Shown here: in pieces, positions 5,871-51,324 of the stretch
How the letters are laid out: every line of letters begins with the position of its first letter
How positions within the stretch are numbered: position 1 is the stretch's first letter
NCBI RefSeq assembly: GCF_030684315.1
Contig: NC_081362.1
Location: forward strand, 64,522,586-64,586,585
From: Stegostoma tigrinum
Lineage: Eukaryota
DNA: 64,000 bases
Direction: 5' to 3'
Made by a program: the position numbers and the translations under genes
The notes under the pieces: model-generated
What the model saw: only the letters and a program-made list of their open reading frames with translations
Told to the model about the DNA's origin: nothing
Database searches by the model: none

Positions 5871-6315
5871 GCATGCTCCAATTCTCAAAATGAGCGAGGG
5901 AAGCGGAGGGGGAGTCAAGAATTCACTGGCCTCCAACTAGCAGTCTGTTATCATAGGAATTTGTCAAACTGACCCAGGACGAGCTGTTCCTCTGCAGGTA
6001 TATCACTGGTAGGCTCACAGCCCAAAAACGTCCGGGTCATTGTGTACCAGGAGAAGAATAATCCAAATTGAATGCAAATTAGGGATCATTGAATCATGCG
6101 GTTGGACACCTGAGCGGTGCTTCAGCCAATGCCAGCATGAAAACAGCAGTGTGCAGAAATCACTCCAAATTTTTATTTTTAATTTTTGGAAAATTGACCC
6201 ATGGCTGCTGTATCTAAATTAATCCTATTTTATTTCAATAAATATTTACCCTTTAATGTATTCATTGGTTCACCCATTCTACCGAGGCAAATTTACAAAC
6301 ACTAAGGTTTTAGAG

Positions 6316-7088
6316 TAGATTCGTAGCTCGGATTGTGGATGTTGTGGTTGGTTGGCTCACCGAGCTGTTAATTGTTCTGCAGACGTTCCCTTACCCTGCT
6401 GGGTAACATCATCAGTGCAGCCTCCGATGAAATGCTGTTGTGCTTTCCTGCCTGTTATTTAACGACTTCAGGAAGATGCTGCATGCCCCAACACACACAT
6501 CACGCTACCTTACATCAGGAACACTTGTGAGCTGACCACAAGACTCCGATGACCACTGGGCCTCAGAGTAGCACAAAAACGCACATCAACCCGATGCTAA
6601 TTGTTCACCCAAACTGAAGACTCACTATCAATTATGGACAGAACCAATGTCATTGACAAGATCCCCTGCAGAGACTGCGACAAACATTACCTTGGACAAT
6701 TAAACACAAGAGTACATGAACATTAACTAGCAACAAAAAGACATGACCAATACTCATTCATCTCCATCCATATGGATAAGGAAAACCACCAATTCGATTG
6801 GGACAACAACAGGATCCTGAGACAGGCGAAGCAGGGACAAGCACAGGAAGACCTAGAAGACCCCTAAGAAAGCCATCAGTAAACACATAGAGCTAGACCC
6901 CATATATACTCCATTGCTAAAGTAAACAGGAAGTGAGGTAATTCAGCTTAATGGACACCAGAGTTTAAATGACAGGTGGGAAAACACAACAACACCTCAT
7001 TGGAGGCTGCACTGATGATGTTATCCAGCAGGGTAATGAAACGTCTGCGGAACAACAAACCAGCTCGGCGAGCTAAACAACCACAAAA
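6316..7088 (+). mobile_element. Degenerate Poseidon/Penelope-type PLE with inverted terminal repeat
   Basis: Remnant TLPYIRNTCELTTRL...NVIDKIPCRDCDKHYLGQ...TRVHEH...HQFDWDN; 6342-6462 is an inverted copy of ~6965-7087; flanking tttagag at 6309-6315 and 7089-7095. Confidence 0.82.
7007..7050 (+). ncRNA. Minimal type I hammerhead ribozyme motif (Poseidon-type PLE); inverted sister copy at 6377-6420
   Basis: ctgca-CTGATGA-t-gttatcc-agca-gggtaat-GAAA-CGTC-tgcgg: 5-bp stem I, 6-7-bp stem II, ACGT palindrome in place of stem III. Confidence 0.8.
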
Positions 7089-9710
7089 TTTAGAGAGAGC
7101 TTCTTCAACATTGATTCCAATTCACCTCAAATATTGCGGATCTTTTGGCCAGTTCAGTCAATGCCAACAGGTAGCTCTTTGAGGGCTTCCTGATTGAGAT
7201 ATACAGCTTTTTTGTATTCTATCCAGGTGATAACTGTCTTGTCCATAGGTTTGAGAGCCTCCTGTCCGATGCTTTGGGGCAGGCCATCCCTGGGATCAAG
7301 AATCAACAACCAGGAATTCTGTCTCCAAGAGCTACCAATCAATCAGAGGCCAGCACTCCAGTAGGGAGTGCCACTGGAAGGGTGTGGCAGCTGCTGGCCA
7401 CAAGCCCAGCAGAGATCCAGGGTCAAAAACAGAACTGAGACCAGAGTTAAGGGAAAACTGGAAATTGAATAGAAGATGGTGTTGGCCAGGGGATACAGGG
7501 GTGTTTGACTCTCGGAGAAACTCCTCGTCAGCCCTTGAACAATGGATCCTCCCTGGGAGCAAGCAAGTAATCCTCAGGCTCCCCTTGGGCTAGCTGTCCC
7601 ACATTCATTAGTTACATATCAGCCCCACTGGCCTCAATAGGCATTAATCAGCCACTTAGGGGCCTCAATCAGCACCAGAACACATAATCATTCATAAGCT
7701 TTCTTGCCCGCACTCAAACAGGGCTGGGGTAGGCAAGTAGAATGGTCCCCAAGTGCACCCTTCCATTTTAATAGATATCTCTAAATATGAGTTAAAGTAG
7801 GGCATTAAATTATGGCTTTATGCTATCACATCACAAGTATTCATTTAATGAAGTGATCTCACATAATGGCATCAGGGAATTCAATATAGTATCCGAAGGG
7901 CTGCAATCCCTTCATCACTGCACTACAATTATCTTCATGGCCTCACATTTGTTGCCTGTACTTTTACAAAACTACGATCATAACCTACAATTAAAACACT
8001 ATGAAGATAGCTGAAGGTGAAATCAACTTGTAAGTTACAATAATTAGGATCTTGGAAGTCTTAACTTCTGCAAATTCCCAAATTTTGTGAGGTTCCCTCC
8101 AAAACTGGCCTGGAGTCTCAAAGGAATTAAAGATATGCTTGAATGTATAGACATCTCTACAGGTTGATCTGCACTAGTTTGACCACATGGCTGTAATACT
8201 TCAATGATGGATAGCTATCAAGACAAGCAAACAGAACACTCCTCAGGATTCTTCGTTGATGTGGCTTTTTGTTAAAAGTTAATTTTGGATTTGTTGAAGA
8301 TATGCCTGGGCCTGAGGTTTGTTAAGTTTATAAAAAAATTCTACTCTGCAGACTTTTATGTCCTGTTATCAGAATTATTGGTTTTCCAGACTGCAATAAA
8401 ATGTTGGAGAATATCTTTACGAGGGATGATATGCACTGTTCCTTTCAAATCCTTATTTATGCTTTTGACAAGACTATGACACTAATAAAGTAATGTAACA
8501 TGAAGTTTATACTAAATAGCAGAACACTTCAAGGGTCACAAATTCAACCCAAACTATCTCATAACTCATGGCTGGTTATCATCTTTTGATGTATTATCAA
8601 TTGATCTACAAAGTACCGAGGAAGGGCCAGGGTTTAGTCCAGAGCCTGAGTGCCCTGGGATCTGACCTTCTCAAACTATGTTTAAGGGCCATCTTTGTGC
8701 CAAACCCTCAGCACCTCCTCCCACCAACAATGCTGTGTATTAGAGAAGGAGTGTGAAAGTTTAGGGCTTTCCTTAGCTTGCAAGTAAATATCAGCTTGTC
8801 AGCCAGGTCAACTAAAGTCCGCTGAGTGTGTTAGCTGAACAAAAGCTGGAAAATAGCATTAGACCAGTCAGCTATTTTACATAAGAACATAGCACAAGTG
8901 GGCCATTCAGCCCATCAAGGCTGCTCCACCATTCACTTAGGTCATGGCAGTTCATCAATCTCAATACCTGCATGTCTTTGAAGGCTGCATTTTTTACAAC
9001 TCCTTCGTCCAAGTCCTTGACACACATGGCAACATCTCAATGTGGTAGCCACCACCTTTCCTCTCCACCCTCATTTAAGGCAATGGCAGTGAGGCCTGTG
9101 AAAGCCGTTCCACTCCACCTCCAGTCTTTTTTATTAGTTTGTTGGGTGTGGGTGTCATTGGCTGGACCAGCATTTATTGTCCATCCCTCACTGCCCTTGC
9201 GAAGGTAGTGGTGAGCTGTCTTCTTGAACCACTGCAGTCCTCATGATGTAGGTGGATCCACATTGCTGTTAGCGACGGAATTCCAGGATTTTGACTATGC
9301 AACAATGAAGGAATGCTGATATAATTCTGAGTCAGGATGGTCAGTGGTTTGGAGGGGAACTTGTGGGTGGTGATGTTCTAAAAAAGTCTTTAAGTTCCCA
9401 ACTGAAATACAGCTAAAAGCCTCATTCCACTGCCTCTGGTATTAACCAGTTGCAGACAGGGCCTCACAGTGTGAGGTGCACAGTAACTAAACTCTGGCAC
9501 CACTGAAAGAGAGCTCTTGCTTTTGCTGCTGACCCCCACCCCATACTCCATAACCCCTGTATCTTGGCTATCCCTTCTGCCATCATTCATTGTGCCTGCG
9601 TATCTCTGTGATCTGAGGCCTCTGATGGGTGTAGTACCAGTTGCAGCCATTATCTCTACACTGGCAGTCTTGAGAAAAGATGAACTGAGAACACCTGATA
9701 AACTAGTATC

Positions 9711-10170
9711 AGAGATAATGGGAACTGCAGATGCTGGAGAATTCCAAGATAATAAAATGTGAGGCTGGATGAACACAGCAGGCCAAGCAGCATCTCAGGA
9801 GCACAAAAGCTGACGTTTCGGGCCTAGACCCTTCATCAGAGAGGGGGATGGGGAGAGGGAACTGGAATAAATAGGGAGAGAGGGGGAGGCGGACCGAAGA
9901 TGGAGAGTAAAGAAGATAGGTGGAGAGAGTGTAGGTGGGGAGGTAGGGAGGGGATAGGTCAGTCCAGGGAAGACGGACAGGTCAAGGAGGTGGGATGAGG
10001 TTAGTAGGTAGATGGGGGTGCGGCTTGGGGTGGGAGGAAGGGATGGGTGAGAGGAAGAACCGGTTAGGGAGGCAGAGACAGGTTGGACTGGTTTTGGGAT
10101 GCAGTGGGTTGGGGGGAAGAGCTGGGCTGGTTGTGTGGTGCAGTGGGGGGAGGGGACGAACTGGGCCGGT
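9711..10170 (-). mobile_element. 3' end fragment of the young Neptune-type PLE with full tail
   Basis: Near-identical to 17004-17425 and to the palindrome arms; hammerhead core at 9812-9839. Confidence 0.9.
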
Positions 10171-10339
10171 AAACTGGCAGCTTTTGGCAAGAAGGAGTTT
10201 GAGGGAGGTTTGATCCCAAAGAAAATTTCTTCATTGGCTTGTAAAATACCTGAGTGGAGCAAGATTTCAATGGCCTTCTTAAAAAGAGGCAACTCTCCAG
10301 ATGACAACCATTACCCCACAATATTCCATTCACAGTCTA

Positions 10340-10765
10340 ATGTCTCGGCTGGACATGTAAGATCCCATGGCGCTATTTTGAAGAAGAGTAATGGTAATTG
10401 TTCTCGTGTCCTGAGCAATATTTACCCCTTGATTAACATCAGAAGAAATTGATTCTTTGTTGTTAACACATTGCTATTTGCAATCGCATTTTGGGAGTTT
10501 GCTGTGTGCAATTTGGCTGCTATGCTCCCTATATTGCAACACAACTATCTTTCAAAAGTATCAGAGATAATGGGAACTGCAGATGCTGGAGAATTCCAAG
10601 ATAATAAAATGTGAGGCTGGATGAACACAGCAGGCCAAGCAGCATCTCAGGAGCACAAAAGCTGACGTTTCGGGCCTAGACCCTTCATCTTTCAAAAGTA
10701 CTTCATTGTTTGCAATGTATTCTGGGGTGTCCTGTGGCCATCACAGGGTGCGGAATAAATGCAGC
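10340..10765 (+). mobile_element. Deu-domain SINE (SacSINE1/AmnSINE-like); more decayed copy at ~61160-61500
   Basis: agatcccatggcgctattttgaagaagag...gggagtttgctgtgtgcaatttggctgct...ttcaaaagtacttcattg resembles the Deu domain as recalled, not searched. Confidence 0.65.
10561..10689 (-). mobile_element. ~129-bp PLE 3'-terminal mini-insertion inside a Deu-domain SINE
   Basis: Matches 9709-9837; 14-bp TSD atctttcaaaagta at 10547-10560 and 10687-10700. Confidence 0.9.
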
Positions 10766-11723: not shown

Positions 11724-12076
11724 TAGTCATAGGTCATAGAAACCCTACAGTGTGGAAACAGGCCATTCGACCCAACAGGTCCAAACCACCCCTCCGAAGA
11801 GCATCTCACCCAGACCTAACCCCCTATCCCTGCATTTCCTATGTCTAACCCACCTAAACTAAATATCCATGGGCTCTATGGGCAATCTAGCATGGCCAAT
11901 CCACCTAACCTGCATATCTTTGGACCGTGGGAGGAAACCGGAGCACCCGAAGGAAACCCACGCAGACACGGGGAGAATGTGCAAACTCCACACAGACAGT
12001 CGCCCGAGGCTGGAATTGAACCCGGGTCCCTGGTGCTGTGAAGCAGCAGTGCTAACCACTGAGCCACCGTGCTACC
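11724..12076 (-). mobile_element. tRNA-derived HE1/V-type SINE, well preserved
   Basis: A box TGGCTCAGTGG, B box GGTTCAATTCC, core ctgtgtggagtttgcacattctccccgtg...ggattggccatgcta, CR1-like tail. Confidence 0.88.
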
Positions 12077-12724: not shown

Positions 12725-12862
12725 TCCCGAAGAAAAGTCATACTGTTTTCGAAATGCTAACTCTGTTACTCTCTCCTCAGATGTTACCAGTCCTGCTGAG
12801 TTTCTCCACTACTCTGTATATCTGTTTCAGATTTCCAGCAAATGCAGTACTTTGCCTTTAAT
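12725..12862 (+). mobile_element. Decayed 3' end of another PLE-like family (related scraps at ~43580-43640, ~48160-48262(+), ~48355-48431(-))
   Basis: Shared pattern cygaaga...gtcayt...cgaaa..taactctg..tctctccacagatgctg..agacctgctga; decayed hammerhead-like core. Confidence 0.5.
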
Positions 12863-17003: not shown

Positions 17004-18270
17004 ATAATAAAATGTGAGGCTGGATGAACACAGCAGGCCAAGCAGCATCTCAGGAGCACAAAAGCTGACGTTTCGGGCCTAGACCCTTCATCAGAGAGGG
17101 GGATGGGGAGAGGGAACTGGAATAAATAGGGAGAGAGGGGGAGGCGGACCGAAGATGGAGAGTAAAGAAGATAGGTGGAGAGAGTATAGGTGGGGAGGTA
17201 GGGAGGGGATAGGTCAGTCCAGGGAAGACGGACAGGTCAAGGAGGTGGGATGAGGTTAGTAGGTAGATGGGGGTGCGGCTTGGGGTGGGAGGAAGGGATG
17301 AGTGAGAGGAAGAACCGGTTAGGGAGGCAGAGACAGGTTGGACTGGTTTTGGGATGTAGTGGGTAGGGGGGAAGAGCTGGGCTGGTTGTGTGGTGCAGTG
17401 GGGGGAGGGGACGAACTGGGCTGGTTTAGGGATGCAGTAGGGGAAGGGGAGATTTTGAAACTGGTGAAGTCCACATTGATACCATATGGCTGCAGGGTTC
17501 CCAGGCGGAATATGAGTTGCTGTTCCTGCAACCTTCGGGTGGCATCATTGTGGCAGTGCAGGAGGCCCATGATGGACATGTCATCTAGAGAATGGGAGGG
17601 GGAGTGGAAATGGTTTGCGACTGGGAGGTGCAGTTGTTTGTTGCGAACTGAGCGGAGGTGTTCTGCAAAGCGGTCCCCAAGCCTCCGCTTGGTTTCCCCA
17701 ATGTAGAGGAAGCCGCACCGGGTACAGTGGATGCAGTATACCACATTGGCAGATGTGCAGGTGAACCTCTGCTTAATGTGGAATGTCATCTTGTGGCCTG
17801 GGATAGAGGTGAGGGAGGAGGTGTGGGGGCAAGTGTAGCATTTCCTGCGGTTGCAGGGGAAGGTGCCAGGTGTGGTGGGGTTGGAGGGCAGTGTGGAGCG
17901 AACAAGGGAGTCACGGAGAGAGTGGTCTCTCCGGAAAGCAGACAGGGGTGGGGATGGAAAAATGTCTTGGGTGGTGGGGTCGGATTGTAAATGGCGGAAG
18001 TGTCGGAGGTTGATGCATTGTATCCGGAGGTTAGTAGGGTGGTGTGTGAGGACGAGGGGGATCCTCTTAGGGCGGTTGTGGCGGGGGCGGGGTGTGAGGG
18101 ATGTGTTGCGGGAAATACGGGAGACGCGGTCAAGGGCGTTCTCGATCACTGTGGGGGGAAAGTTGCGGTCCTTAAAGAACTTGGACATCTGGGATGTGCA
18201 GGAGTGGAATGTCTTATCGTGGGAGCAGATGCGGCGGAGGCGGAGGAATTGGGAATGGGGGATGGAATTT
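17004..18270 (-). mobile_element. 5'-truncated Penelope-like element (Neptune-type): RT C-terminus, Cys linker, GIY-YIG endonuclease, 3' terminal repeat with hammerhead
   Basis: Open frame SIPHSQFLRLRRICS...FPCNRRKCYTC...NVVYCIHCTRCGFLYIGETKRRLGDRFAEH...LQPYGIN (ORF 17319-18188); 8-bp TSD ttcctgaa at 16997-17004 and 18270-18277. Confidence 0.92.
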
Positions 18271-19381
18271 TCCTGAACTCTGGCAGCCTTAAGGGAGAAA
18301 CTGCACAGTTATTTGAAAAGAATTAACTACCTCAGTTTTTCTGGTTCCCAATTGGCAGGGTATTCCCTTTTTGAAATGTTTAAACTGCTCTCTCCCCTTT
18401 CCACCCCTTTGCCTCTCTTTCGGATCCATCTCTTCTTTGCAGACATGCTCTCCTTTTCATAAACTATTTCTCCCTTTGCAGTTCCTCTCCCAAATTTACA
18501 GCCTTGCTTCACCTCCATCACCCATGCTTCCGACCTCACCCAAACCACACCAGCTTCATTGCCTGGCCCATGGCCTCACAATTCCACTTCCCATTTGTAC
18601 CTTCCAACAGAATTCATCCTCCCTCCTTCCCCCAGCCTTGTCCCCTCTGACCTCATCTCCTCCAGGCCACCAACGTGTTTCAACTCTCTCCCCACATCCC
18701 GTCAGCCTTGTCCCTGCTGATCCTGTTTGCCACCCTCCCCAGGACTCTTTGCTGGTTTTGGGGTTGAGTTCACCCAAAAAAACCCCTGTGTATTTTATGT
18801 GTTGAACTCCATGTCTGATCAGTCCTGAGGCTCAAGAAAATTTGTGTACATCTGGCCAACAGATGTGTTTTACTGGATGATTCATGTTGTAAGTGGTTAC
18901 CTGTGGCTGGAAGGCCTTCCAACCCGGAGTGATAGCAGCCTCTCTGTTGGAGGCAGGAACTGCTGGTGTAAGGAAGAGAGGAAGGGCACCCCAATAGGTG
19001 TTGGGGGGAAAAACACTCTGAAAGAGTTCCTTAATTTAAAGAAAAAAAAATATAGATCAGAGTTACAGACCTCCAATTTCAAGGGGAAATCCCACCATTG
19101 GGTGGCTCATAGCTATTGCTGTCCATTGGATATAGCCATTATGCAGGTTAAAAAAGGCATTTGCAATGACACTTCCCCAAGCTGCTTCACTGAGGTGGCT
19201 GGGAATCAGCTGCTGGGCCTAACTACTGCCTGGGCATTTCCCCAGTGCCCTCAATGTACAATTTAGGAGACTTCATTGGCTAGCTAGTGCTTGTGGACAG
19301 TTCACTGTCATGCCCACTGCTCCACCCTAACCATTCTCTATTTAGAAGTGTCCAGAAGCAAACAGCATACCATTCCACAGG

Positions 19382-21562
19382 AGATAACAAGATGTAGAGA
19401 TGGATGAACACAGCAGGCCAAGCATCATCAGAGGAGCAGGAAAGCTGATGTAACAGACCTAGACCCTTCTTCAGAAATGGGGGAGGGGAAGGAGGCCCTG
19501 TAATAAATAAGGAGAGAAGGGAAGGCAGATAGAAGATGGATAAAGGAGAAGATAGGTAGAGAGGAGTCAGATTGGTCAAAGAGGCGGGGGTGGATCCAGT
19601 AGAGGTGACCGTAGGTGGGGAGGTAAGGAGGATAGGTCAGTCCAGGGAGGACGGACAGGTCAAGGGGGTGGGATGAGGTTAGTAGGTAGGAGATGGAGGT
19701 GGGGCTTGAGGTGAGAGGAGGGGATAGATGGGAGGAAGGACAGGTTAGGGAGGTGGGACAAGCTGGACTGGTTTTAAGATGTGGTTGGGGGAGGGGAGAT
19801 TTTGAAGCTTGTGAAGTCCACGTCGATACCATTGGGCTGCAGGATTCCCAAGCAGAATATGAGGTGCCGTTCCTGCAACCTTCGGGTGGCATTGTTGTGG
19901 CACTGCAGGAGGCCCAGGATGGACATGTTGCCTAAGGAGTGGGCGGGGGAGTTGAAATGATTCCTGACTGGGAGGTGCAGTTCTTTGTTGAGAACTGAGC
20001 GTAGGTGTTGTACAAAGCGGTCCCTGAGCCTCTGCTTGGTTTCCTGAAGTAAAGGAGGCACATCTGGATCAGCGGATATAGTATACAATATTAACAGATG
20101 TGCAGGTGTACATGTGCTTGGTGTGGAAGGTCTTCTTGGAGCCTGTGATGGGGGTGAGGGTGGAGGTGTAGGGACAGGTGTAACACTTCCTGCGGTTGCA
20201 GGGAAAAGTGCCAGGTGTGGTGGGGCTGGAGGAGAGTATGGAGCGGACAAGGGAGTCATGGAGAGAGTGGTCCCTCCGCAAGGCAGATAAGGGTGGGGAG
20301 GGAAAGCTGTCTTTGGTGATGGGGTCGGATGGCAGATGGTGGAAGTGTCGATCTCCTCAAAAACTTCCTATTGCCCAGTCCCCAACACCTTATCTTTATC
20401 ATGGATGTCCAGTCCCTATACACTTGCACTCCCCCTGCAGATGGTCGAAAGGCCCTCTGCTTCTTCCTGTCCCGCCAGCCTGACCAGTTCCCCTCCACCG
20501 ACACCCTCATCCACTTCACTGAACTCGTCCTCACCCTTAACATATATCCAACGCATCATCCTCTGACATTTCTGCCATCTGCAATCTGACTCCACCACCA
20601 AAGACAACTTTCCCTCCTCACCCTCATCTGCCTTGTGGAGGGACCACTCTCTCCGTGACTCCCTTGTCCACTCCACACTCCCCTCCAGTCCCACCACACC
20701 AGACACTTTTCCCTGCAACCACAGGAAGTGCTACACCTGCCCCTACACCTCCCCCCTCACCCCCATCCCAGGCCCTAAGAAGGCCTTCCACACCAAGCAG
20801 ATGGTCACTTGCAGATCTGCCAATGTGGTATATTGTATCCGCTGTGCCAGATGTGTCCTCCTCCACATTGGGGAATCCAAGCGGAGGCTTGGGGACTGCT
20901 TTGCAGAACACCTATGCTCGGTTTGCAACAAACAACTATACCTCCCAGGTGGGAACCATTTCAACTCCCCCTCCCACTCCTTAGACTACACGTGCATCCT
21001 GGGCCTCCTGCAGTGCCACACGATGCTACCCAAAGGTTACAGGAACAGCACCTCATATTTCGCTTGGGAACCGTGCAGCCCAATATGGACTTCAACAGCT
21101 TCAAAATCTCCCCTCTCCCAACCGCTTCCGAAAACCAGCTCAGTTTGTCCCCGCCTCCCTAACCTTTCCTTCCTCCCACCTATCCCCTCTTCCCACCCCA
21201 TGCCCAAACCCCATCTCCTGCCTACTAGCCTCATCTTGCCCCCTTGACCTGTCCATCCTCCCTGGACTAACATATCCCCTCCCCAACTCACCACCTACAC
21301 TCACCTTTACTGGCTCCACCCCGCCTCTTTGACCTGTCTGTGTCCTCTCCACTTATCTTCTTCTTTATTCATCTTTTGTCCACCTCTCCCTCTCTCCCTA
21401 TTTATTTCATATCCCCCTTCCCCTCCGCCATTTCTGAAGAAGGGTCTAGGCCTGAAACGTCAGCTTTCCTGCTCCTGAGATGCTGCTGGGCCTGCTGTGT
21501 TCATCCAGCTCGACACCTTGTTATGTTGGATTCTCCAGCACCTGCAGTTCCTGCTGTCTCTG
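19382..21562. mobile_element. Older inverted Neptune-type PLE: minus arm ~19382-20350, plus arm ~20350-21562 with RT remnant
   Basis: GIY-YIG remnants on both strands; RT motif IFIMDVQSLYT at ~20390-20425; degenerate TSD ataccattccacagg / atgccattctacaag (19367-19381, 21563-21577). Confidence 0.88.
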
Positions 21563-23455: not shown

Positions 23456-24880
23456 ATAAGATAATAAAATGTGAGGCTGGATGAACACAGCAGGCCAAGC
23501 AGCATCTCAGGAGCACAAAAGCTGACGTTTCGGGCCTAGACCCTTCATCAGAGAGGGGGATGGGGGGAGGGAACTGGAATAAATAGGGAGAGAGGGGGAG
23601 GCGGACCGAAGATGGAGAGCAAAGAAGATAGGTGGAGAGGGTGTAGGTGGGGAGGTAGGGAGGGGATAGGTCAGTCCAGGGAAGACGGACAGGTCAAGGA
23701 GGTGGGATGAGGTTAGTAGGTAGCTGGGGGTGCGGCTGGGGGTGGGAGGAAGGGATGGGTGAGAGGAAGAACCGGTTAGGGAGGCAGAGACAGGTTGGAC
23801 TGGTTTTGGGATGCAGTGGGTGGGGGGGAAGAGCTGGGCTGGTTGTGTGGTGCAGTGGGGGGAGGGGATGAACTGGGCTGGTTTAGGGATGCAGTGGGGG
23901 AAGGGGAGATTTTGAAACTGGTGAAGTCCACATTGATACCATATGGCTGCAGGGTTCCCAGGCGGAATATGAGTTGCTGTTCCTGCAACCTTCGGGTGGC
24001 ATCATTGTGGCAGTGCAGGAGGCCCATGATGGACATGTCATCAAGAGAATGGGAGGGGGAGTGGAAATGGTTTGCGACTGGGAGGTGCAGTTGTTTGTTG
24101 CGAACTGAGCGGAGGTGTTCTGCAAAGCGGTCCCCAAGCCTCCGCTTGGTTTCCCCAAGCGGAGGCTTGGGGACCGCTTTGCAGAACACCTCCGCTCAGT
24201 TCGCAACAAACAACTGCACCTCCCAGTCGCAAACCATTTCCACTCCCCCTCCCATTCTCTTGATGACATGTCCATCATGGGCCTCCTGCACTGCCACAAT
24301 GATGCCACCCGAAGGTTGCAGGAACAGCAACTCATATTCCGCCTGGGAACCCTGCAGCCATATGGTATCAATGTGGACTTCACCAGTTTCAAAATCTCCC
24401 CTTCCCCCACTGCATCCCTAAACCAGCCCAGTTCATCCCCTCCCCCCACTGCACCACACAACCAGCCCAGCTCTTCCCCCCCACCCACTGCATCCCAAAA
24501 CCAGTCCAACCTGTCTCTGCCTCCCTAACCGGTTCTTCCTCTCACCCATCCCTTCCTCCCACCCCCAGCCGCACCCCCAGCTACCTACTAACCTCATCCC
24601 ACCTCCTTGACCTGTCCGTCTTCCCTGGACTGACCTATCCCCTCCCTACCTCCCCACCTACACCCTCTCCACCTATCTTCTTTGCTCTCCATCTTCGGTC
24701 CGCCTCCCCCTCTCTCCCTATTTATTCCAGTTCCCTCCCCCCATCCCCCTCTCTGATGAAGGGTCTAGGCCCGAAACGTCAGCTTTTGTGCTCCTGAGAT
24801 GCTGCTTGGCCTGCTGTGTTCATCCAGCCTCACATTTTATTATCTTGGAATCTCCAGCATCTGCAGTTCCCATTATCTCT
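23456..24880. mobile_element. Palindromic insertion of the young Neptune-type PLE (two inverted 3' halves)
   Basis: Arms 23458-24149 and 24155-24846 are reverse complements; mirrored ORFs 23776-24189(-) and 24115-24528(+); TSD taactattcgtatt at 23442-23455 and 24880-24893. Confidence 0.95.
24753..24780 (+). ncRNA. Minimal hammerhead core of the young Neptune-type PLE (same core at 9812-9839-, 17067-17094-, 23524-23551-, 39974-40001-)
   Basis: CTGATGA-a-gggt-ctag-gccc-GAAA-CGTC: conserved boxes, 4-bp stem II, ACGT palindrome; local stem I only ~2 bp. Confidence 0.75.
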
Positions 24881-24940: not shown

Positions 24941-25018
24941 ATAACAAGGTGTGGAGCTGGATGAACACAGAAGGCCAAGCAGCATCAGAGGAGCAGGAAG
25001 GCTGATGTTTTGGGCCTA
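24941..25018 (-). mobile_element. PLE terminal-repeat scrap
   Basis: ataacaaggtgtggagctggatgaacacag...tgggccta matches the older subfamily end. Confidence 0.75.
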
Positions 25019-27825: not shown

Positions 27826-28238
27826 AGATTTCTGGTTGCAGCAGTGGCGTGAGCGGGAGCCTGGACCAGTGGCCTGTCGGGAAGCCGGTGAGTCACTGTT
27901 TTTGAATCTATAAAAAGCTGATCTTGAGTGTCGGTGCCTTCCATTTCTGGTTGAGCAGTGGCGCGAGCGGGAGCTTGGATCAGGGGCCTGTTGGGAAGCC
28001 GGTGAGTCACTGTTTTTGAGTCTATAAAAAGCTTACCTCGATCAGCAGCACCTCGGAGCAGAGGTTTCTGGGAAGGGAGTGACCTTTTTTTCATCCCTCA
28101 GCTATATAACTGATTGCTGTGTAAACCCGAGACCCTACCCTTGTAGGGCCTCCCAGCCATCCACCTCCTCTAAACTTATACACCAGGGACAAATCAAGGT
28201 AAGCTTTTTTTAAATTTCTGTTTAGGGGATTAGCAGGG

Positions 28239-29151: not shown

Positions 29152-29216
29152 CTCAGAAGTGGGATGGGAAACTGAGGTGTAGTCCTAGTACACAGGAGAA
29201 TGAGCGTAGGGAGAAC

Positions 29217-32084
29217 ATGGTCAGGACCTCACTGTCGCAGGAGTGTGCTGGCAGACAGCAAGCTGGATTGAAGTGTGTCTACTTTAATGCCAGGAGTATC
29301 TGGAATAAGGTAGGTGAGCTTGCAGCTTGGATAGGTACCTGGGACTTCGATGTTGTGGCCATTTCGGAGACATGGATAGAGCAGGGTCAGGAATGGATGT
29401 TGCAGGTTCCAGAGTTTAGATCTTTCATTAAGGTCAGGGAAGGTGGGAAAAGAGGGGGAGGTGTGGCTTTGTTGGTCAAGGACAGTATAACGGTGGCTGA
29501 AAGAACCTTTGATGAGGACTAGTCTACTGAGGTGGCATGGGCTGAGGTTGCTGAGGGAGGTTTGTCGACTGAGTCAGTATGGGTGGAAGTTAGGAACAGC
29601 AAGGGAGTAGTCACCTCACTGGGGGTTTTCTACAGACCCCCAAATAGCAGTAGGGAGATCGAAGAACTCATTGGCCGGCAAATTGTTGAAAAGTGCAAAC
29701 ATAGCAGGGTTGTTGTTATGGGTGACTTCAACTTTCGCAGTGAAGACTGGAACCTCCTTCGTGCAGATGGTTTGGATGGAGCCGTTTTTGTCAGGTGTGT
29801 TCAGGAGGGTTTCCTTACTCAGTATGTGGACAGGCCGACGAGGGGAAGGGGGCATTTTGGATTTGGTGCTCGGCAATGAGCCAGGACAGGTGTCATATTT
29901 CGTGGTGGGAGAACACTTTGGCGACAGTGACCACAACAGCCTCATATTTACCATAGCCATGGAAAGGGAAAGGAGCAGTTACCAGGGGAAGATATTTCAC
30001 TGGGGTAAAGGAAACTATGATGCTATCAAACAGGAGTTGGAAAGTACAGATTGGGAGCAATTGTTCCACAGAAAGGGCACAGCAGACATGTGGAGGCTGT
30101 TTAAGGAGCAGTTGTTGCGAGTGATGTATAAATTTGTTCCTCTGAGACAGGTAAGAAGGGGTAAGATTAAGGAGCCTTGGATGACGGGTACAGAGGTGTT
30201 TCTTGTCAAAAAGAAAAAGACAGCGTACGTAAGGTGGAGGAAGCAAGGGTCTAGCACAGCTTTTGAGGATTACAGGCTTGCTCAGAAGGAGCTCAAAAGT
30301 GGAATGAGGAGGGCCAGGAGGGGGCACGAAAAAGGCTTGGCAGGAAGGATTAGGGAGAACCCGAAGGCATTTTACTCATACGTGAGGAATAAGGGAATGA
30401 TCAGGGAGAAGGTAGGGCCGATCAGGGATAGCATAGGGAACTTCTGCGTGGAGTCTGAACAGATAGGGGAAGCCCTAAATGAGTTTTTTGCTTCGGTTTT
30501 CACTAAGGAAAGGGACCTTGTTGTGAATGAGAACTTTGAGGAGCAGGAAAACAGGCATTAACAGATCAAGATTGAGGAAGTTGATGTGCTGGAAATTTTG
30601 GCAAACATTAAGATTGATAAGTCCCCAGGGCCAGACCAGATTTATCCTAGGTTGCTCCGGGAAGTGAGAAAGGAGGTTGCTAAGCCGCTGGCGAAGATCT
30701 TTGCTTCCTCACTCTCCACGGGAGTCGTACCGGAAGATTGGAGGGAGGCAAATGTTGTTCCTCTTTTCAAGAAAGGGAATAGAGAAATCCCTGGAAATTA
30801 CAGACCAGTCAGTCTTATGTCTGTGGTCAGCAAGGTTTTGGAAAGAATTCTGAGGGTTAGGATTTATGACTATTTGGAAAAGCATGGAGTGATTAAAGGG
30901 AGTCAGCATGGCTTTGTGAGGGGCAGGTCATGCCTTACAAATCTTACTGAGTTCTTTGAGGAAGTCACGAGACAGGTTGATGAGGGTCGAGCAGTGGATG
31001 TGGTGTACATGGACTTCAGCAAGGCATTTGATAAGGTTCCCCACGGCAGGCTCATTCATAAAGTCAGGAAGTATGGGATACAGGGTGATTTAGCTGTCTG
31101 GATTCAGAATTGGTTGGCTGACAGGAGGCAGAGAGTGGTTGTGGATGGTAAGTATTCTGCCTGGAGATCAGTGCTGAGTGGTGTCCCGCAGGGCTCTGTT
31201 TTGGGCCTCTGCTCTTTGTAGTTTTTATAAATGACTTCGATGAGGAGGTTGAGGGGTGGGTTAGTATGTTCGCTGATGACACAAAGGTTGGAGGTGCCGT
31301 TGATAGTATCGAGGGCTATTGCAGGCTTCACTGAGAAACTGACAGAATGCAGATTTGGGCTGAGAAATGGCAGATGGAGTTCAACCTGGATAAATGCGAA
31401 GTGATGCATTTTGGAAGGTCGAACTTAAATGCTGAATATAGGATTAAAGGCCGGATTCTCGGCAGTGTGGAGGAACAGCGGGATCTTGGTGTTCAAGTGC
31501 ATAGCTCCCTCAAAGTTGCCACCCAAGTGGATAAGGTTGTTAAGAAAGCATATGGTGTTTTGGCTTTCATTAACAGGGGGATTGAGTTTAAGAGCCGTGA
31601 GGTTATGCTGCAGCTCTACAAAACTCTGGTGAGACCACACTTGGAATATTGTGTCCAGTTCTGGTTGCCCTATTACAGGAAAGATGTGGAGGCTTTGGAG
31701 AGGGTGCAAAGGAGGTTTGCCAGGATGCTGCCTGGACTGGAGGGCTTGTCTTACGAGGAGAGGTTGACTGAGCTCGGACTTTTCTCTCTGGAGAGAAGGA
31801 GGAAGACAGGTGACCTGATCGAGGTGTACAAGGTAATGAGAGGCATTGATAGAGTCGATAGCCAGAGACTTTTCCCCAGGGCAGGATTGACTGCCACGAG
31901 GGGTCATAGTTTTAAGGAGTTAGGAGGAAGGTATACAGGAGACGTCAGAGGGAGGTTCTTCACCCAGAGAGTTGTGAGCGCATGGAATAGTTTACCAGTG
32001 GTAGTCGGGGAAACTGAGTCATTAGTGACATTTAAGCGACTGCTGGACATGTACATGGACAGCAGTGAATTGAGGGGAATGTAG
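29217..32084 (+). pseudogene. CR1 ORF2 (AP endonuclease plus reverse transcriptase) with stops and frameshifts
   Basis: YFNARSI, ISETW, FYRPP, MGDFN, SDHN; KSPGPD, NYRPVSL, QHGF, DFSKAFDKV, GVPQGSVLG, FADD; stops at 29520-29522, 30559-30561 and ~31333 plus frameshifts. Confidence 0.92.
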
Positions 32085-33496: not shown

Positions 33497-34572
33497 TAAC
33501 GTGGAGGTGCTGGTGTTGGACTGGGATAGACAAAGTCAGAAGTCACTTGACACCAGTTATAGTTTAACAGGTTTATTTACAGTCACAACCTTTCCATGCA
33601 TTACTCCTGCATTGGGCGAAGTGGAGAGGGGCATTCAGGTGCAGAATATATAGCGGAGAGAGAAATACTCATGCTATTTGTACTTATCTGTTGACACACG
33701 TAATGACCTGTAATCATCTTATTATCTCTCTGCCTATATATTCTGTGCCTGTGTGCCCCTCTCCAGCTCAACTGACAAAGGAGCAATGCTATGAAAGCTT
33801 GGGTTGGGCAATAACCTGGTGTCAGATGCTGGAGAATCCGAGATAACAAAGTTTTAGAGCTGGATGAACACAGCAGGCCAAGCAGCATCTCAGGAGCACA
33901 AAAGCTGACGTTTCGGGCTTAGACCCTTCATCAGAAAAGGAGGATGGGGAGAGGGCTCTGAAATAAATAGGGAGAGAGTGGGAGGCGGATCGAAGATGGA
34001 TAGAGGAGAAGATAAGTGGAGAGGAGACAGACAGGTCAAAGAGGCAGGGATGGAGCCAGTAGAGGTGAGTATAGGTGGGGAGGTGGGGAGGGATAATGGG
34101 AGCTGCAGATGCTGGGGAATCCGAGATAACAAAGTGTGGAGCTGGATGAACACAGCAGGCCAAGCAGCATCTTAGGAGCACAAAAGCTGACGTTTTGGGC
34201 CAAGACCCTTCATCAGAAAAGCTAGGGGCTGCACCCCCATTTTCTTCCTACTAACCTCATCCCGCCCCCTTGACCTGTCTGTCCTCCCCGGACTGACCTA
34301 TCTCCTCCCTACCTCCCCACCTACAGTCACCTGTACAGGCTCCATCCCTGCCTCTTTGACCTGTCTGTCTCCTCTCCACCTATCTTCTCCTCTGTTCACT
34401 TTCGATCCGCCTACTCCTCTCTCCCTGTTTACTTCAGAACCCTCTTCCCGTCCCCCATTTCTGATGAAGGGTTTAGGCCTGAAACTTCAGCTTTCCTGCT
34501 CCTAAGATGCTGCTGGGCCTGCTGTGTTCGTCCAGCTCAACACTTTGTTAACCTGGTGTCATGTGACTTCTG
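33497..34572. mobile_element. Older inverted element of a different, probably PLE family, hosting the 33825-34548 insertion
   Basis: Inverted ends tcagaagtcacttgacaccagttat / ataacctggtgtcatgtgacttctga; decayed hammerhead-like ctgacaaaggagcaatgctatgaaagctt at ~33772-33800; 13-bp TSD attaagataagta at 33484-33496 and 34573-34585. Confidence 0.7.
33825..34548. mobile_element. Compound PLE terminal-repeat insertion (two tandem minus copies, one plus copy)
   Basis: Hammerhead-like cores at 33907-33934(-), ~34188-34216(-), 34461-34488(+); 13-bp TSD taacctggtgtca at 33812-33824 and 34549-34561. Confidence 0.88.
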
Positions 34573-38640: not shown

Positions 38641-39876
38641 CTGTTTAACGATTTGCTACAACTGAGGTATTTCAGAGATGAGGATGGCAGATTTCTTTCC
38701 CTAAGTGAACCAGCTGGGTTTTCCCCCTGATATTCAGTAATGGTTTTGCCAATCATTAGACTCTTTATTCCAGAAATTTGTACTGAATTCAAATTCCACA
38801 GTATCTGAGAATCTGGATTAACAATAGCGATAATACCATTGCCTCCCATAATGTTGAGCTTCGTGCAATTATCGGGGAACATCCCCAGGTCTGACCTTAT
38901 GATGGAGGGAAGGTGGTGAATAAGGGGCCTGATCTTTAATCAGCCCTGATATTTGTGTCGTTGTAAGACTTGCCACACCTTTTTCTTGCAGTGCATCCTT
39001 TCCACTTCCTCACTGAAATGATAAACATCTTTTCGCTGACGGTCAAATGTCTGCTTCTCACGAGGGCCTGTCTGCTTGCCTCGAGTTTTAATCTTTTTGC
39101 TTTGCATTTGACTTGGGATCTGTTACTTTAAGTAGTATTCTCCTGCAACGTTATATAGACCTTGGAGTTAAATCTCCATATCATCCATCCCCACCATCTT
39201 TCTGAGGCCACACATACAAACCCCAGCTTTCCCAACCAGCAGGCCAATGTGCTGAGCATTTTCAGCATTGTTTACTGTTTGGCGTTTCAGATTGTCTAGG
39301 TCTGCAGCGTTTTTGTTTTGCAACTGTATGTGAATGTTCCCTCACTGCAGAAATCGTAACGAAAGCTGCAAACGTGTCTAAACAGAGTCAATTGGTATTT
39401 GCCCACTGTTTGGAAACCAGTAACCCAACCGACGGGACTGGCCAATCTTAGGAAACTCCCCTGAGCAAAGACCTTCCAGTGATTTTCAATCCATTGCCAC
39501 ACAGGAAGGGTGTGAGGAATGGTTTCGAAGGGACAGGCCAACAGATTGGTGAAATACCACAGGGATCTTCAGATCTCCGATTATCCATGAAGAACCGGCT
39601 GCTCGTATAAATTATTTGGGGTCGGATATATTTTGTACCCTAACCTCAGGCAGAAATATTTTTTAAAAATCCTGCACACAGTATTGTACAAAGCGACACT
39701 TGTGAAAAATGTAAGGCTAGGGCAAATCCTAATCGAGCTACAGAGTGCTAATGGGATTAGGGCTGGAGCACAGGAAAAAATTGCACACGCACAGTTGATG
39801 GCTTCAAACACAATCCACAAGGCTGCGGATGGAAAAACTGAAAAGCGATGAAAAACATGAGTATTATGAGAATAGT

Positions 39877-40108
39877 GATAATGGGAACTGCAGATGCTGG
39901 AGAATCCAAGATAACAAAGTGTGAAGCTGGATGAACACAGCAGGCCCAGCAGCATCTCAGGAGCACAAAAGCTGACGTTTCGGGCCTAGACCCTTCATCA
40001 GAGAGGGGGATGAGGAGAGGGTTCTGGAATAAATAGGGAGAGAGGGGGAGGCGGACCGAAGATGGAGAGAAAACAAGATAGGTGGAGAGGAGAGTATAGG
40101 TGGGGAGG
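39877..40108 (-). mobile_element. PLE 3' end fragment
   Basis: Same terminal repeat family; hammerhead core at 39974-40001. Confidence 0.88.
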
Positions 40109-43847: not shown

Positions 43848-43944
43848 CCTCTCTGATGAAGGGTCTAGGCCCGAAACGTCAGCTTTTGTGCTCCTGAGAT
43901 GCTGCTTGGCCTGCTGTGTTCATCCAGCCTCACATTTTATTATC
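43848..43944 (+). mobile_element. ~100-bp PLE mini-insertion (hammerhead plus short 3' flank)
   Basis: Matches 24748-24844; 12-bp TSD ttggttttaatt at 43836-43847 and 43945-43956. Confidence 0.92.
43853..43880 (+). ncRNA. Minimal hammerhead core upstream of PKDCC
   Basis: CTGATGAAGGGTCTAGGCCCGAAACGTC, same as the young family core. Confidence 0.75.
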
Positions 43945-45000: not shown

Positions 45001-45146
45001 TAGATCAGGAAAGGGAAAAAAAATCCCTCAAGTGTTATCTTGCCTGCAGGGTAGAAATTTTACTGTACAATGTGAAAACTCCAGTTTCAAACAGCCGCTT
45101 TGCATAAGGGCTTCGCACAAAGTTCTTTCTCAGATTCAGCAACGAA

Positions 45147-45854
45147 ATGAAACGCAGAAAGATTGCCATCGCCGCTGGGTTTTGCTGTTCATTCTTCCTG
45201 GGCACTTTATTGAATTTGTTATTTATCCCTGGATTTGACCATCACCATCATCAGCAGCAGCAGCGTTTTGAGGGACCAGGGCAAGATCACCTCAGCATCG
45301 TCCCATCCACGTATTTCAATCGGGGGACCGACCAAGACCTGTTGAAGCAACTGAAAGAAAGGTACCAGGAGGTTGTCCGCTATCGGCAGCAGCCTGGCTC
45401 CACAGCGGCTGCAGGGAGGCTCGCTAGACCGCTAGAGAGGCGCCTGATGGACCTAGCACAGAACAGTTCCCCCGACCAACTGCAACCCCAGCATCAGCCG
45501 CAACCACAGAGCCACACCGGTTTCCAGAAGAACCGGCTACTGACTGCGCCCGGGGAAAGTGCCTTCGCCTCGAGCAGTCCGATTCGGTTCCATTCGCTTC
45601 CCCTGGGCTGTCGGGATATTAATAACGCGAGCAGTGTCCATTATTTAGGCTCTGGCTACACAAAGGCGGTGTACAAAGCAGTTCTGAATGAAACGCTGGC
45701 GGTGGCCTTAAAGTCGGTGGACTTTGGAGGACATGACATGGAAAACTGTGTCAAGCAGTACGGGGCACTGGAAGATTGCTACAGACTAGCATCGTACAAA
45801 CTTGTCAAAGAGATGACACTATTACAACGGCTCCAGCACTCAAACATTCTAAAG
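45147..45854 (+). CDS. PKDCC: PKDCC/VLK coding exon 1 (236 codons): signal/anchor peptide, His/Gln/Pro-rich stem, kinase N-lobe
   Basis: ATG at 45147; MKRRKIAIAAGFCCSFFLGTLLNLLFIPG resembles the vertebrate PKDCC N-terminus; Gly-loop YLGSGYTKAVY, VALK lysine, CYRLASYKLVKEM; phase-0 donor AAG|gtaagt after 45854. Confidence 0.96.
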
Positions 45855-48800
45855 GTAAGTGGCAGCACTGTCCATCAGTAACCTGTTGGAGCCATTTCTT
45901 ACTGGGAGGACTGAAAAGATTCGGTTTATTTGGGGATTGATTTCTTTGCTCAGTGAGTCATTTTTGAAAAGCCATCCATCTGTCGGATCTGTGTTGGAAA
46001 ATATGCAGAGGACTTCATGACAACGTTGTTAACCTGACATTCTCTTCAGTCATTCACGACTGATGTGAAAGCACAAACATTTCAGTTCATTAAATATATT
46101 TATCTCATGTCCGTGTGTCACTGGGTTGGCTTTTTCACGGTATTTGAGCTGATTCAATATTAAGACCGATCATTCGGCATCATTTCAGATGGTAATGTGA
46201 CTGTGGAATTAGGTGGCAGGATTAACATGGATTCTCAACAGGAATTCACTTTTTAATTTTGCGCTGAAATTTCATTCTTTGCATGTAAATTTAAGTTTTT
46301 ATAATTAAATTGAGCTATGACGTGGTTGCATTTCTTTCTGCTGTCCGGAATTTATATTGTATTATAACCTGACCTTTAGGAAATAATTCCTTCTGGAGTT
46401 TTGTAATGGCTGAGACTGAGGGGGTGGGTTTGGAATGGAGAAGAAGGAAGAGGTAAGGGCGGCAGCCTCTTACGGATGAACTACCCGGGGAGATGGGCTG
46501 AATGTTTTCCTTCCAGTTGCAGTCTGCTTGCCTCCTTTTGCTTTTAGGGTTCCTGCCCAGCACCGGAGATTGACTCCGCGTTGAAGCGCACTTTGGCTGA
46601 TAATGTGGGCTGCATTGCCAGCGCTGTGTGCGGAACCCTCTTCTTTGAACCGGCTGAGTTTAAAGCGGCCGCAGTGTGGCTCAGACGGTCGCTGCCTGGA
46701 TTGGGGTCGATTTTGTTTCAATCACCGCTGGTTGAAACGGCGCATCAGCTGAGCTGCAGAGGTTATTTCTCTGCCAGTGGAAATCAGTAAATCATTTGCT
46801 GCGGCATTACCCGCAGCGGGCTGCAATGCAATTGACGCTGGCTGTCTCGGCAGTACTTTAAAATAAAAATCACGCTGCATTTAGAACATCGGTCTGTTTA
46901 TAAAGCCAAGCACTTCACTCAACACCACGTAGCCCATGACAGTTTTTAGAAGCACACAGACATTACGCAAATATATCCGTTCAATTTTTAATGAATTTGT
47001 CAGATTACCTGTTGTATATCCAATGCCCCTGACCAGCATATAGGATCTCCCTCCCCCGTCTCTCGGGGCTAAATTCACTTTCACACATTTGTAAAACAAA
47101 CTTGCGTCCATTCAGCCCTTTTAATTCAATCCGTCGTTTCCCGCATGCTTTCAGTCAGCAGCACGGGGTTGATCTGTACCATTTTCTTCCCACGTTACTT
47201 GAATGGGGTGGGTTTCTCCAGACGTTCGTACATAGAAGGAGGACCGTACATGCAATCGGATGACAAAAAGGAGGACAGAATATTCGTACACATATACTCA
47301 AGAACTTTTTTGTGTGTGTATATGTGGGGTTGGGGGTTGAGGCAGATGTATTTGTATTCCCACTAATAAGAAGTGTCAAGTGCTGTTGATCCAGTTTCTA
47401 TAGTAACCGTCTTTCCGTTCTTTATTACGGAGAGGGATTTCACGGGATGCCCAGTTTAAAGTGTAATGTGCAAGAGAATGGGGAAGTTCTGTATTGTTCA
47501 GAGCAGATCTATCCCTTAAGCCTTGTACAATCCACCCAGTGCTGAAGCCGACTTCAAATAGAAATGTGTCCCATCATCAGCAAGAAGGTTTAATCTCGAG
47601 AGGAAAGCGGGCTTTTCTGGGCAAAGCTGCTTTTACAATTGCAATTGCTCAGGGCAATAATCCATTATTTGTGTGTTTGTATGGATAGATGTTGTAATTT
47701 AAAATATACCAGCAAAATGTCCTCTAGGGCTATAACAAATCCAGTTTCCATCCCCGCTGTTCGAGGGATTGGCGAGATTATATTTAAAATGCAAATCAGG
47801 CCGAATTCTAACACCCAGTAAAACGTTGCACTCGCCCGACTCTCCAGTTCTGCCCGCCACTCCCAGATTAAGAACAGCACCAAATGTGCCCATGTGAAGG
47901 CTATCCAGCAGCCGCAGGGCTGTGAGGGTTGTCAGTCAGTTGAATTGAAAGTGGGCTTTCAAGGAAAAAAACGACCCTCAGTGAGCCAATATTTGTATTT
48001 TATTTCGGGTGAAATTACGTCCGATTATCAGATAGGTCTCAGAGTGGAGGCAAAACCTGCGAAAAACCATTCCTAAAGCTAGGTAGAAACGGATAGACTG
48101 CATTACTGGTGCAAGCCTGAGAATAGTGAAAAGGCGCGCCCCACAATATTACTAAATCATATTCTGAAGCAGCGTCACTAGAGGCGATACGTTTAACTCT
48201 GCTTTCTCTCCACAGATGCTGTCGGACCTGCTGAATTTATCCAGCAAGTTCCATTTTGTTTTAGCACTAGGTGACAGCTCCTCGTTGCTGTTAAAAATAA
48301 ACCAGCCTTAGTAGCCTACGAACTACCCTTGTTTATTAGGCGAAGACTGAATTGTACAGAAATTGCCGGGAAACCTCAGCAGCAGGTGGGGAGAAAGCAG
48401 AGTTAAGTCCTGGGTGACCCGTCTTCAGAACATAGTATCACAGTGCTGTTGCGACCCATCCACCACTCTCAGGCTTGTTGTGCTGTTTGTACACTAGTAA
48501 CGCAGCCCATGTTTTATTCTGTCTGGATTGTTGTGGTAAAGTCACTGGACTAGTAATCTAGACTTTGAGATTAATGTTTTGGGAAAATGAGCTCGAATCC
48601 CATTAGTACAGTTGATGAAATTTGAACTCGTTATAATAATGGAATAAAAGAACTTGTCTCATGGCGATTGTGTTGTCATAAAAAGAAATCCATCTGGTTC
48701 ACTGATGCCCTTTGGGGAGGGAAATGTACTGTCCTGCTTTCATTCGGGCCTACACGTGAGTCTGGACCTGCCGCAGTGTGGTTGACTCTTAACGTCCTTC

Positions 48801-50249: not shown

Positions 50250-50409
50250 AGACAGTAGGAACTGCAGATGCTGGAGAATCCGAGATAACAAAGTGTGGAG
50301 CTGGATGAATACAGCAGGCCAAGCAGCATCTTGGGAGCAGGAAGGCTGACGTTTCGGGCGAAGACCCTGCTTGGCCTGCTGTGTTCATCCAGCTCCATAC
50401 CTTGTTATC
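50250..50409. mobile_element. Miniature inverted PLE-end insertion in PKDCC intron 1
   Basis: Minus-strand tail plus terminal repeat, then an inverted ~45-bp copy; 16-bp TSD tcagatactgaatcag at 50234-50249 and 50410-50425. Confidence 0.9.
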
Positions 50410-51324
50410 TCAGATACTGAATCAGCACGGTCTGTACAAATAGCTGATCGTTAGCAGAAATACCTTCAGACTTATAGGATGAGGGGAGAGAGACGACACA
50501 TCTCGAGCACCATACAAGTTTCCCTCTGTATTTGGAATCGATATTGTTTTGATTAAGGCACAAATCTCATTTTTAACGGACTCTTTTTGGAAATGTGTTG
50601 TGACGTTATAACATGAAAACAATGTTAGAAGCAGAAATACAAAGAAAGAGAATGGGACTCGCTCTTTGCGATAACAATGCTCCTTAACCGTACTGTTTTC
50701 CATTTTGATCCTGCTATTGATTATACGGCTCACCAACTACTGAAGGTGATCACTGTCCCCGCACAGTTTTGGGAGGAGGGATTGTGGCTGGTTTGTGAAA
50801 CTTAACCCTCTTCCACCCTTGGTGGGGATGAGCAGGATGCTTCATGTTGAGGCCATTCGGCCCTAAAGGCGTTGCTTTTTTAATCCATCGGCGGCGTGAC
50901 GAGTGTCAAGCTTCGGTCATTTCCCCACCGTCACCGTCAGTCCCTTTCTAACGTTTGGAAAAGTTATAATGCTTTCTGCAATGCTGAACGACGGTATTCA
51001 ATTCCCGAAGAATATCTGTCTGCGACCCTGAAATACAATGCCGTACAGTAGCCCTCCCGCCCAGGCCATGTGACAGGAGCATAACAGGTCGCTTGAAAAT
51101 CCCCGCAGAATGAAGGCGTTGTACACAGTTCCACTCTCTTCCGCTGATCTAATGGCTAATCATTAACTTGTGATAACCCAGAGACCCAGACGAACTACAT
51201 TTGCTGCCCGTGACATGTATTACAAGCTTACGTGAGCTTAATTCTAATTCTGTTTTGGTGCAGGCTCATTCATTCTGATAGGAAAGGGGAAAGCGCAGGG
51301 CGCGCCTATAATGGAACGACAGGG

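Follow-up and report, generated by a model that had tools for sequence, protein, structure and literature searches.

Unlike arms and discrete 3' ends in inverted Penelope-like insertions of Stegostoma tigrinum

Results

The stretch of DNA analysed here, called the window, comprises 64,000 nucleotides of Stegostoma tigrinum contig NC_081362.1 (positions 64522586-64586585; G000:C11:64522586-64586585) in an assembly of 3.2 Gb. Its repeat content has a shark-like look, and it holds copies of three families of Penelope-like elements (PLEs), two apparently of the Neptune type (N and H) and one apparently of the Poseidon type (P). A preliminary description of the window had claimed six inverted insertions, each bounded by a target site duplication (TSD), with extra 3' sequence on one arm, and had attributed them to reverse transcription from two discrete sites. 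All six are present: their arms lie head-to-head with the 3' ends outward, and one arm carries the extra 3' sequence, or tail. In this study, we characterized these insertions and counted their ends and arms in a larger sample, and found the counts to favour two independent cDNAs, copied from the same source, as the origin of the arms.

The best guide to the elements is L181 (G000:C37), a natural near-complete family N copy with an open frame of 1112 codons, which matches RVT_1 (E 8.5e-5) and then, at its C-terminus, GIY-YIG (E 0.004), both below the Pfam cut-offs; the window fragment 17004-18271 matches GIY-YIG with E 8e-4. Families P and H match the L181 protein by tblastn (L064 of P, E 6e-9; L094 of H, E 1e-5). 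The CCHH motif, with its two cysteines between GIY and YIG, is found in L181 (VYCIHCTRCGFLYIG, then two histidines) and in L064 (IYKIPCKNCDKHYVG), and L181 is laid out as an inverted tailed arm, a partial tandem, the open reading frame (ORF) and a tail-less end, within a 16-nt TSD. Judged by sequence, the three families are thus endonuclease-bearing PLEs, a group marked by an ORF encoding reverse transcriptase and GIY-YIG endonuclease, the CCHH motif, and the pseudo-long terminal repeat (pseudo-LTR), tail and TSD of such elements. The linker between reverse transcriptase and endonuclease reads C-x4-C-x2-C in L181, with a decayed equivalent in L094. The accessible text of Craig et al. 2021 (PMC8557442) defines Neptune by a CX2-5CxxC linker at this place, and by that definition N and H would be Neptune-type; Nematis also has the linker, so that the linker alone does not separate the two. 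In family P, as represented by L064, the 55 residues that precede the GIY-YIG motif include no cysteine, and L064 is tied to the window copy at 6302-7085 through shared end sequence of ~71% identity. Family P would accordingly be of the Penelope/Poseidon type, which lacks the linker zinc finger, as in Poseidon. Family N is very young and very abundant, one 30-nt stretch of its young subfamily having 70,649 exact matches in the genome. The long ORF also contains an in-frame tandem repeat (L181:4234-4418; ADGTPPTVD-like units), and young copies differ in how many units of it they have.

Family N positions are given relative to the final base of ...TTATTATC, termed site A (window 24844, + arm), with negative values upstream. 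The young family N insertion at 23456..24879 consists of a tail-less left arm of 699 nt and a tailed right arm of 690 nt plus tail, identical across 697 nt and overlapping by 4 nt at the centre, within an exact 14-nt TSD (23442-23455/24880-24893). Its tail (24845..24880, +) is the 36 nt from the tail-less end, site A, to the tailed end, site B, and in long copies this sequence runs on into the ORF start. A much shorter family N insertion (50250..50409) pairs a tailed left arm of 85 nt plus tail with a tail-less right arm of 43 nt inside a 16-nt TSD (50234-50249/50410-50425). The family H insertion at 33497..34572, with a tailed left (-) and a tail-less right arm, has a 13-nt TSD (33484-33496/34573-34585), and its right arm is split by a nested family N insertion (33825..34548; 13-nt TSD 33812-33824/34549-34561). 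The latter does have the claimed partial tail on its left outer end, opposite a tail-less right arm, but is more complex than had been described, as it also contains a second, fully tailed tandem copy (34089-34217) starting at -93. Insertion of family N into other PLEs, of which this is one case (window 33812-33824), is also seen at L013:1958-1971, L083:475 and L016:2313-2327, with several of these insertions in or near end repeats.

While these four insertions have exact TSDs of 13-16 nt, the remaining two have only decayed ones. The older family N insertion at 19382..21562, tail-less on the left (-) and tailed on the right (+), has arms 84-87% alike and an exact TSD match of 6 nt only, within a decayed repeat of ~15 nt judged by eye. 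The family P insertion lies at 6302..7085, with a tailed left arm on the - strand (6302-6462) and a tail-less + arm that holds a decayed GIY-YIG fragment. Its left boundary had been placed at 6316, next to a 7-nt TSD at 6309-6315. Both had to be given up because the same seven bases continue the tail in other family P copies (L012, L048, L110) and are therefore part of the element; the TSD is a decayed 13-mer (6289-6301/7086-7098; 7 exact bases, 10/13 by eye). The corrected boundary gives a tail of ~38 nt in place of the 26 nt that formed the lower end of the earlier range of ~26-39 nt.

The clustering of ends described for the window is real. Measured from a single reference point, the tail-less ends on the list fall at -1..+7 and the tailed ones at +36..+52, with alignment ends overshooting the true element ends by microhomology; the tail-less end at 34548 is 4 nt short, judged by its TSD. 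Of the two lone tail-less copies that had been credited with TSDs of their own, the one at 43848..43944 (+), which starts at -97, has a TSD of 12 nt, whereas that at 17004..18271 (-), which comprises the GIY-YIG end of the ORF and the C-x4-C-x2-C linker, has one of just 8 nt. Single tailed copies occur at 10561..10689 (-; starting at ~-90; 14-nt TSD 10547-10560/10687-10700) and at 9711..10170 (-; without a convincing TSD). An older subfamily is represented by a short tailed copy at 2583..2659 (+; exact repeat of 6 nt only) and a short tail-less one at 24941..25018 (-). A TSD was looked for and none found at the last of these, nor at 39874..40108 (-), a tailed copy absent from the earlier list.

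To obtain counts beyond the window, 130 stretches of 10 kb picked blind by coordinate, of which 110 came from seven contigs and 20 lie next to the window, were added to it, giving a sample of 1.364 Mb with 347 family N ends, of which 6 at locus edges were dropped and 341 scored. The 3' ends form two peaks ~36 nt apart and not a continuous spread: 133 lie at -8..+7 and 137 at +28..+47, with 26 between, 33 shorter and 12 longer. Among the 92 young ends (at least 95% identity), 43 fall in the tail-less and 45 in the tailed peak, leaving 1 between, 2 shorter and 1 longer. Families P and H behave similarly, with 16 of 27 P ends at or below +2 and 11 at +30..+39, and 12 of 23 H ends at or below +9 and 11 at +36..+41.

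The two kinds of end are also paired. A TSD reaching the score cut-off, which unrelated end pairs reached in 2/593 trials, bounds 63 of 189 opposite-strand end pairs, with lengths of 11-17 nt (mode 14-15). Fifty-five of these 63 events combine a tailed with a tail-less end, 4 a tailed with a shorter end, 3 a tail-less with a partial tail and 1 a tailed end with a partial tail; no event (0/63) is fully tailed, or tail-less, at both ends. In the 17 long events, 14 fetched for their endonuclease region and 3 from the window and sample, a tailed end is paired with a tail-less one every time (17/17), and all seven well-supported TSD-bounded events of families P and H pair unlike ends (7/7), so that the pattern does extend across the three families. 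The outer ends of L191-L194 at first appeared to be two-tailed, but those tails belong to internal tandems; the outer ends are one tailed and one tail-less, with TSDs of 11-18 nt. Among 101 unpaired family N ends at at least 88% identity, copies with a TSD include 13 tailed (one of them a tandem junction) and 12 tail-less. At L045:5794-6334, the flanks of two short same-strand N copies, one tailed and one tail-less, are reverse-complementary, and the pair may be an inverted event that underwent a local inversion.

Microhomology to the target, described earlier for tail-less ends, exists but is not special to them. It averages 1.49 nt at tail-less 3' junctions (43/63 scorable) and 1.58 nt at tailed ones (40/63 scorable), compared with 0.37 nt in shuffles, and measures 1-5 nt at both. 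Altogether, the bimodal ends and the absence of like-ended events support the proposal of two discrete start sites, with the spacing in family N at ~36 nt instead of the ~34 nt given before.

Arm lengths were determined by mapping the arms onto one natural long copy, which was possible for 62 of the 63 events; the total length of the short events bounds their arms independently of this reference. The tail-less arm is the longer one in 24 events, by up to 840 nt, and the tailed arm in 20, whereas the two agree within 3 nt in 18. Since either arm may be the longer, the arms are best read as two independent cDNAs, not as one cDNA and its fold-back copy. Both appear to have been copied from the same source. 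In the 17 long events, arms differ by 2.2 bases per 500 within an event compared with 8.3 between events, and minority alleles common to both arms number 58, against a mean of 11 and a maximum of 35 after re-pairing. In 31 of 39 events with both arms of at least 80 nt, the partner is among the best-ranking quarter of all arms, and arm lengths are tightly coupled (13 long/long, 47 short/short, 2 mixed; n = 62; Fisher p 1e-11). Event centres differ from one event to the next, and on this ground the idea of one short inverted master element was dismissed. In L181, the centre (L181:2339-2457) contains ~120 nt of filler, 65 nt of which are a fragment of the endonuclease region in sense orientation, which suggests template jumps during joining.

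The 5' ends of the arms have a preferred place as well. Among 124 arm 5' ends, 58 lie 80-99 nt upstream of site A and 4 at 100-179 nt, and single copies stop at the same place as short arms. This wall lies at ~-96 (window 24749..24752, +, with -96 at 24749), just before a hammerhead-like core at -92; the copy at 24749 itself reads through -96. To characterize the wall, we counted by hand the base before the 5' end in the first 100 matches listed, all of the young subfamily and nearly all on the first contigs. Starts at -96 with a non-template preceding base number 9,178 genome-wide, with G in 68, A in 6 and T in 26 of the first 100 listed. The corresponding G:A ratio among the first 100 listed is 29:29 at -97 (4,227 matches) and 19:18 at -60 (2,898 matches), both serving as control positions; at -94 it is 42:7 among the matches listed. 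Because the mirror arm can supply a G, a stricter test was applied in which the two upstream bases fit neither the element nor the mirror arm. Under this test G:A among the first 100 listed is 89:11 at -96 (692 matches; background 0.565, p 2e-12) and 63:37 at -97 (133 matches; background 0.565, p 0.11). The blind sample agrees, with G in 5/8 cases at -96 and 0/5 at -97, the numbers being small. The sequences upstream of the G vary from locus to locus. A splice acceptor was rejected as the source of the G, as there is no genomic AG before -96 and the upstream sequence is variable.

An untemplated 5' G at the 5' junctions of full-length L1 and SVA copies is described as a cap signature (PMC3287187, accessible text), and the D. 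virilis Penelope has its start and an internal promoter within the pseudo-LTR (PMC2377424, accessible text). We infer a capped transcription start at -96, and a second one at -94, with the extra G derived from the cap. In the young subfamily the wall reads CCCTCTCT, one mismatch away from YYCTTTYY, the consensus of the TCT-type polypyrimidine initiator in which transcription starts on a C (PMC4102762, PMC8461331, both in their accessible text), a consensus that any pyrimidine tract resembles. A start at -96 would explain why short copies dominate. The 3' end of L181 is tail-less, and an internal-start transcript would therefore hold the priming sites near its 5' end only. In L239, L241 and L264, a truncated sense copy is followed by a G and then by a new copy from -96 or -94; these junctions are partial tandems built from the short leader.

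The hammerhead-like motif itself was found by motif scan at 24753..24780 (+; CTGATGA ... GAAACGTC), with a predicted cut after 24780 (-64); further such motifs lie at 7012, 21434, 34461 and 43853 (+) and at 9839, 17094, 23551, 33934 and 40001 (-). By pattern, copies of families N and P have the core, as do some of family H, with a helix I of just 2 bp in N; Rfam gives no match for it at the gathering score. Minimal hammerheads, as well as paired motifs on opposite strands 100-700 bp apart, are on record (PMC4209133, accessible text). Cutting upstream of the core, as by a type III hammerhead, was rejected, since the pyrimidine tract cannot form the helix I hairpin. Starts at -64 with a non-template base (4,653) exceed those at -60 (2,898), and the preceding base in the first 100 listed is A in 58, G in 19 and T in 23, with 28 of the A rows representing 14 symmetric palindrome junctions. 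This modest excess without a G bias, gauged against one control position and influenced by the palindrome, hints that some templates may have been cleaved.

Outside the PLEs, the window contains a 257-codon open frame at 45108-45881 (+), whose start resembles a signal anchor and whose end resembles a kinase N-lobe. It has no match in Pfam, and we take it to resemble the first exon of a PKDCC-like secreted kinase. A decayed long interspersed nuclear element, presumably CR1-like, occupies 28203-32084 (+), with a GDSL/SGNH esterase ORF1 and a reverse transcriptase.

Discussion

The inverted insertions are probably products of twin priming on one RNA by what is likely a dimer of the element protein, with two fixed priming sites and a capped start at -96. 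The protein would place nicks ~14 nt apart on the two target strands. From each of the free DNA ends, reverse transcription would then begin at one or the other site, using 0-5 nt of chance pairing with the RNA. As both nicked strands would prime antisense synthesis, the arms would come to lie head-to-head between the copies of a TSD. The two cDNAs would stop independently and join centre to centre, often via an overlap of a few bases or filler, and gap filling would generate the TSD. Where one cDNA survived alone, a single tailed or tail-less copy would be left, each about equally often. For most templates, the 5' end would be the capped start at -96, just ahead of the hammerhead motif, and this short template would make most insertions short in both arms, while long arms would need RNA that reads through from upstream. 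The wider proposition that PLE integration is an obligatory double priming of one RNA by a dimer, with each fixed site used once and on opposite target strands, yielding mostly full-length cDNAs of a short leader with a capped polypyrimidine start and a minor ribozyme-cut class, has in our estimate slightly less than an even chance; if true, the genome records the promoter of the element and possibly the activity of its ribozyme.

Several observations weigh against this account. Three family P pairs without a TSD are not mixed, one of them (L118) having two tails, and of the 34 neighbouring opposite-strand pairs that lack a TSD, 4 are tail-less/tail-less and another 2 tail-less/shorter; such pairs may be separate insertions. 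Among single tailed or tail-less ends with plain flanks, 38/63 have no TSD at the cut-off. An in vitro study reports initiation without homology to the cut DNA, while the junctions here show matches of 1-5 nt. The shared variants could have been increased by gene conversion between the arms. As for the G, the counts come from the first 100 matches listed, mostly on the first contigs, and represent the young subfamily, the older ones being T-rich, and at inverted junctions the mirror arm could supply the G in 8-10 of 23 cases.

Other explanations differ in how they account for the arms. It has been suggested that the tailed cDNA folds back into a hairpin and that the endonuclease trims the resulting copy 36 nt short (an idea found in the accessible text of PMC8557442 and PMC3846280). 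Variants common to both arms, arms equal within 3 nt in 18/62 events and the small palindromes at some centres are all in keeping with it. However, a copy cannot out-reach its template at the 5' side, and yet the tail-less arm is longer in 24/62 events and the tailed arm in 20/62; in addition, 12 tail-less ends with a TSD occur alone. Fold-back as the sole route is thereby contradicted, and we regard it as very improbable altogether. A closer competitor, though still an unlikely one, is that two RNAs of the same source are used, one per subunit of an asymmetric dimer and each primed at a different site. If both came from one locus, the pairing, the shared variants and the length coupling would be just as expected, which counts against a single RNA; moreover, the polymerase would not need to displace the other cDNA, and a dimer is predicted in the accessible text of PMC11167929. 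On the other hand, this arrangement needs a built-in asymmetry to bar like pairs (0/63) and a near-absolute pairing of RNAs from the same locus even though young copies run to tens of thousands (70,649 exact matches). We favour one RNA, primed once at each site, because it is the simplest account of the absent like pairs, and consider it likely that both arms came from it.

Alternatively, twin priming may be right and the wall may have another origin, either a stop of the reverse transcriptase at the hammerhead hairpin or C-rich tract, or the edge of a short non-autonomous master copy. The motif does fold into a hairpin with its 5' foot at -92, the ends at the wall spread from ~-85 to -101, and the arms of family H likewise stop near their own motif. 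A stall, however, gives no reason to expect a G at a single position but not at its neighbour, and two independent stalls would not couple the arm lengths so tightly, while a master copy is at odds with the sequence upstream of the G, which differs between loci. We therefore hold this explanation to be doubtful, if somewhat less so than that of two RNAs, and retain the capped start at -96.

In their inversion, the insertions recall those of L1. In L1 twin priming, the second target strand primes on the same RNA and an inversion results; the internal site of this second priming varies, and there is no overlap between the two parts. The elements studied here, by contrast, have two fixed sites, and their arms repeat one and the same sequence. 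The likeness lies in the inversion from second-strand priming and in the untemplated G, which L1 has at its full-length 5' ends (PMC3287187, accessible text).

Two start sites and a one-arm tail are already published (PMC11167929, PMC3846280, PMC8557442; here and below, in their accessible text). The Poseidon element PAc of Anolis carolinensis has two internal start sites in vitro; the tail is the stretch between them, both strands are cut and extended, and a dimer is predicted (Frangieh et al. 2024, PMC11167929). Like the sites described here, those of PAc bound a tail of 30-40 nt and match the ends of genomic copies, and a hammerhead motif lies in the pseudo-LTR. The main family here is apparently of the Neptune type. 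In contrast to the 1-5 nt matches found here, PAc is reported to start without homology, and inverted insertions, TSDs, arm pairing and transcription starts, all treated in this study, are absent from the accessible text of that paper. A tail on one of the inverted repeats has been described for PLEs (Arkhipova et al. 2013, PMC3846280; Craig et al. 2021, PMC8557442), with self-priming or endonuclease resolution suggested as the cause, and the origin of tandem and inverted PLE structures has been called unresolved (PMC8557442, PMC11167929). The canonical endonuclease-bearing PLE unit resembles the present insertions in its inverted 5'-truncated copy, partial tandems, TSD and often one-ended tail. 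Such units were presented case by case, whereas here they are counted, and the arm lengths speak against one arm copying the other. The accessible literature, which does not extend to key older reviews, yielded no study on how often unlike arms pair, on twin priming or on a G derived from the cap in PLEs. What is added here are the shared variants, the length coupling, the finding that either arm may be longer, the microhomology at both junctions, and the wall with its G. A young and abundant family made these counts possible, and they argue against simple fold-back and favour two cDNAs of one source.

A parallel for the wall is the Penelope of D. virilis, in which the start and promoter lie in the pseudo-LTR, upstream of a 34-37 bp repeat (Schostak et al. 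2008, PMC2377424). There, the start was mapped by rapid amplification of cDNA ends; in S. tigrinum, it is suggested by the wall and the extra G, which together provide a base-level prediction of where transcription would begin.

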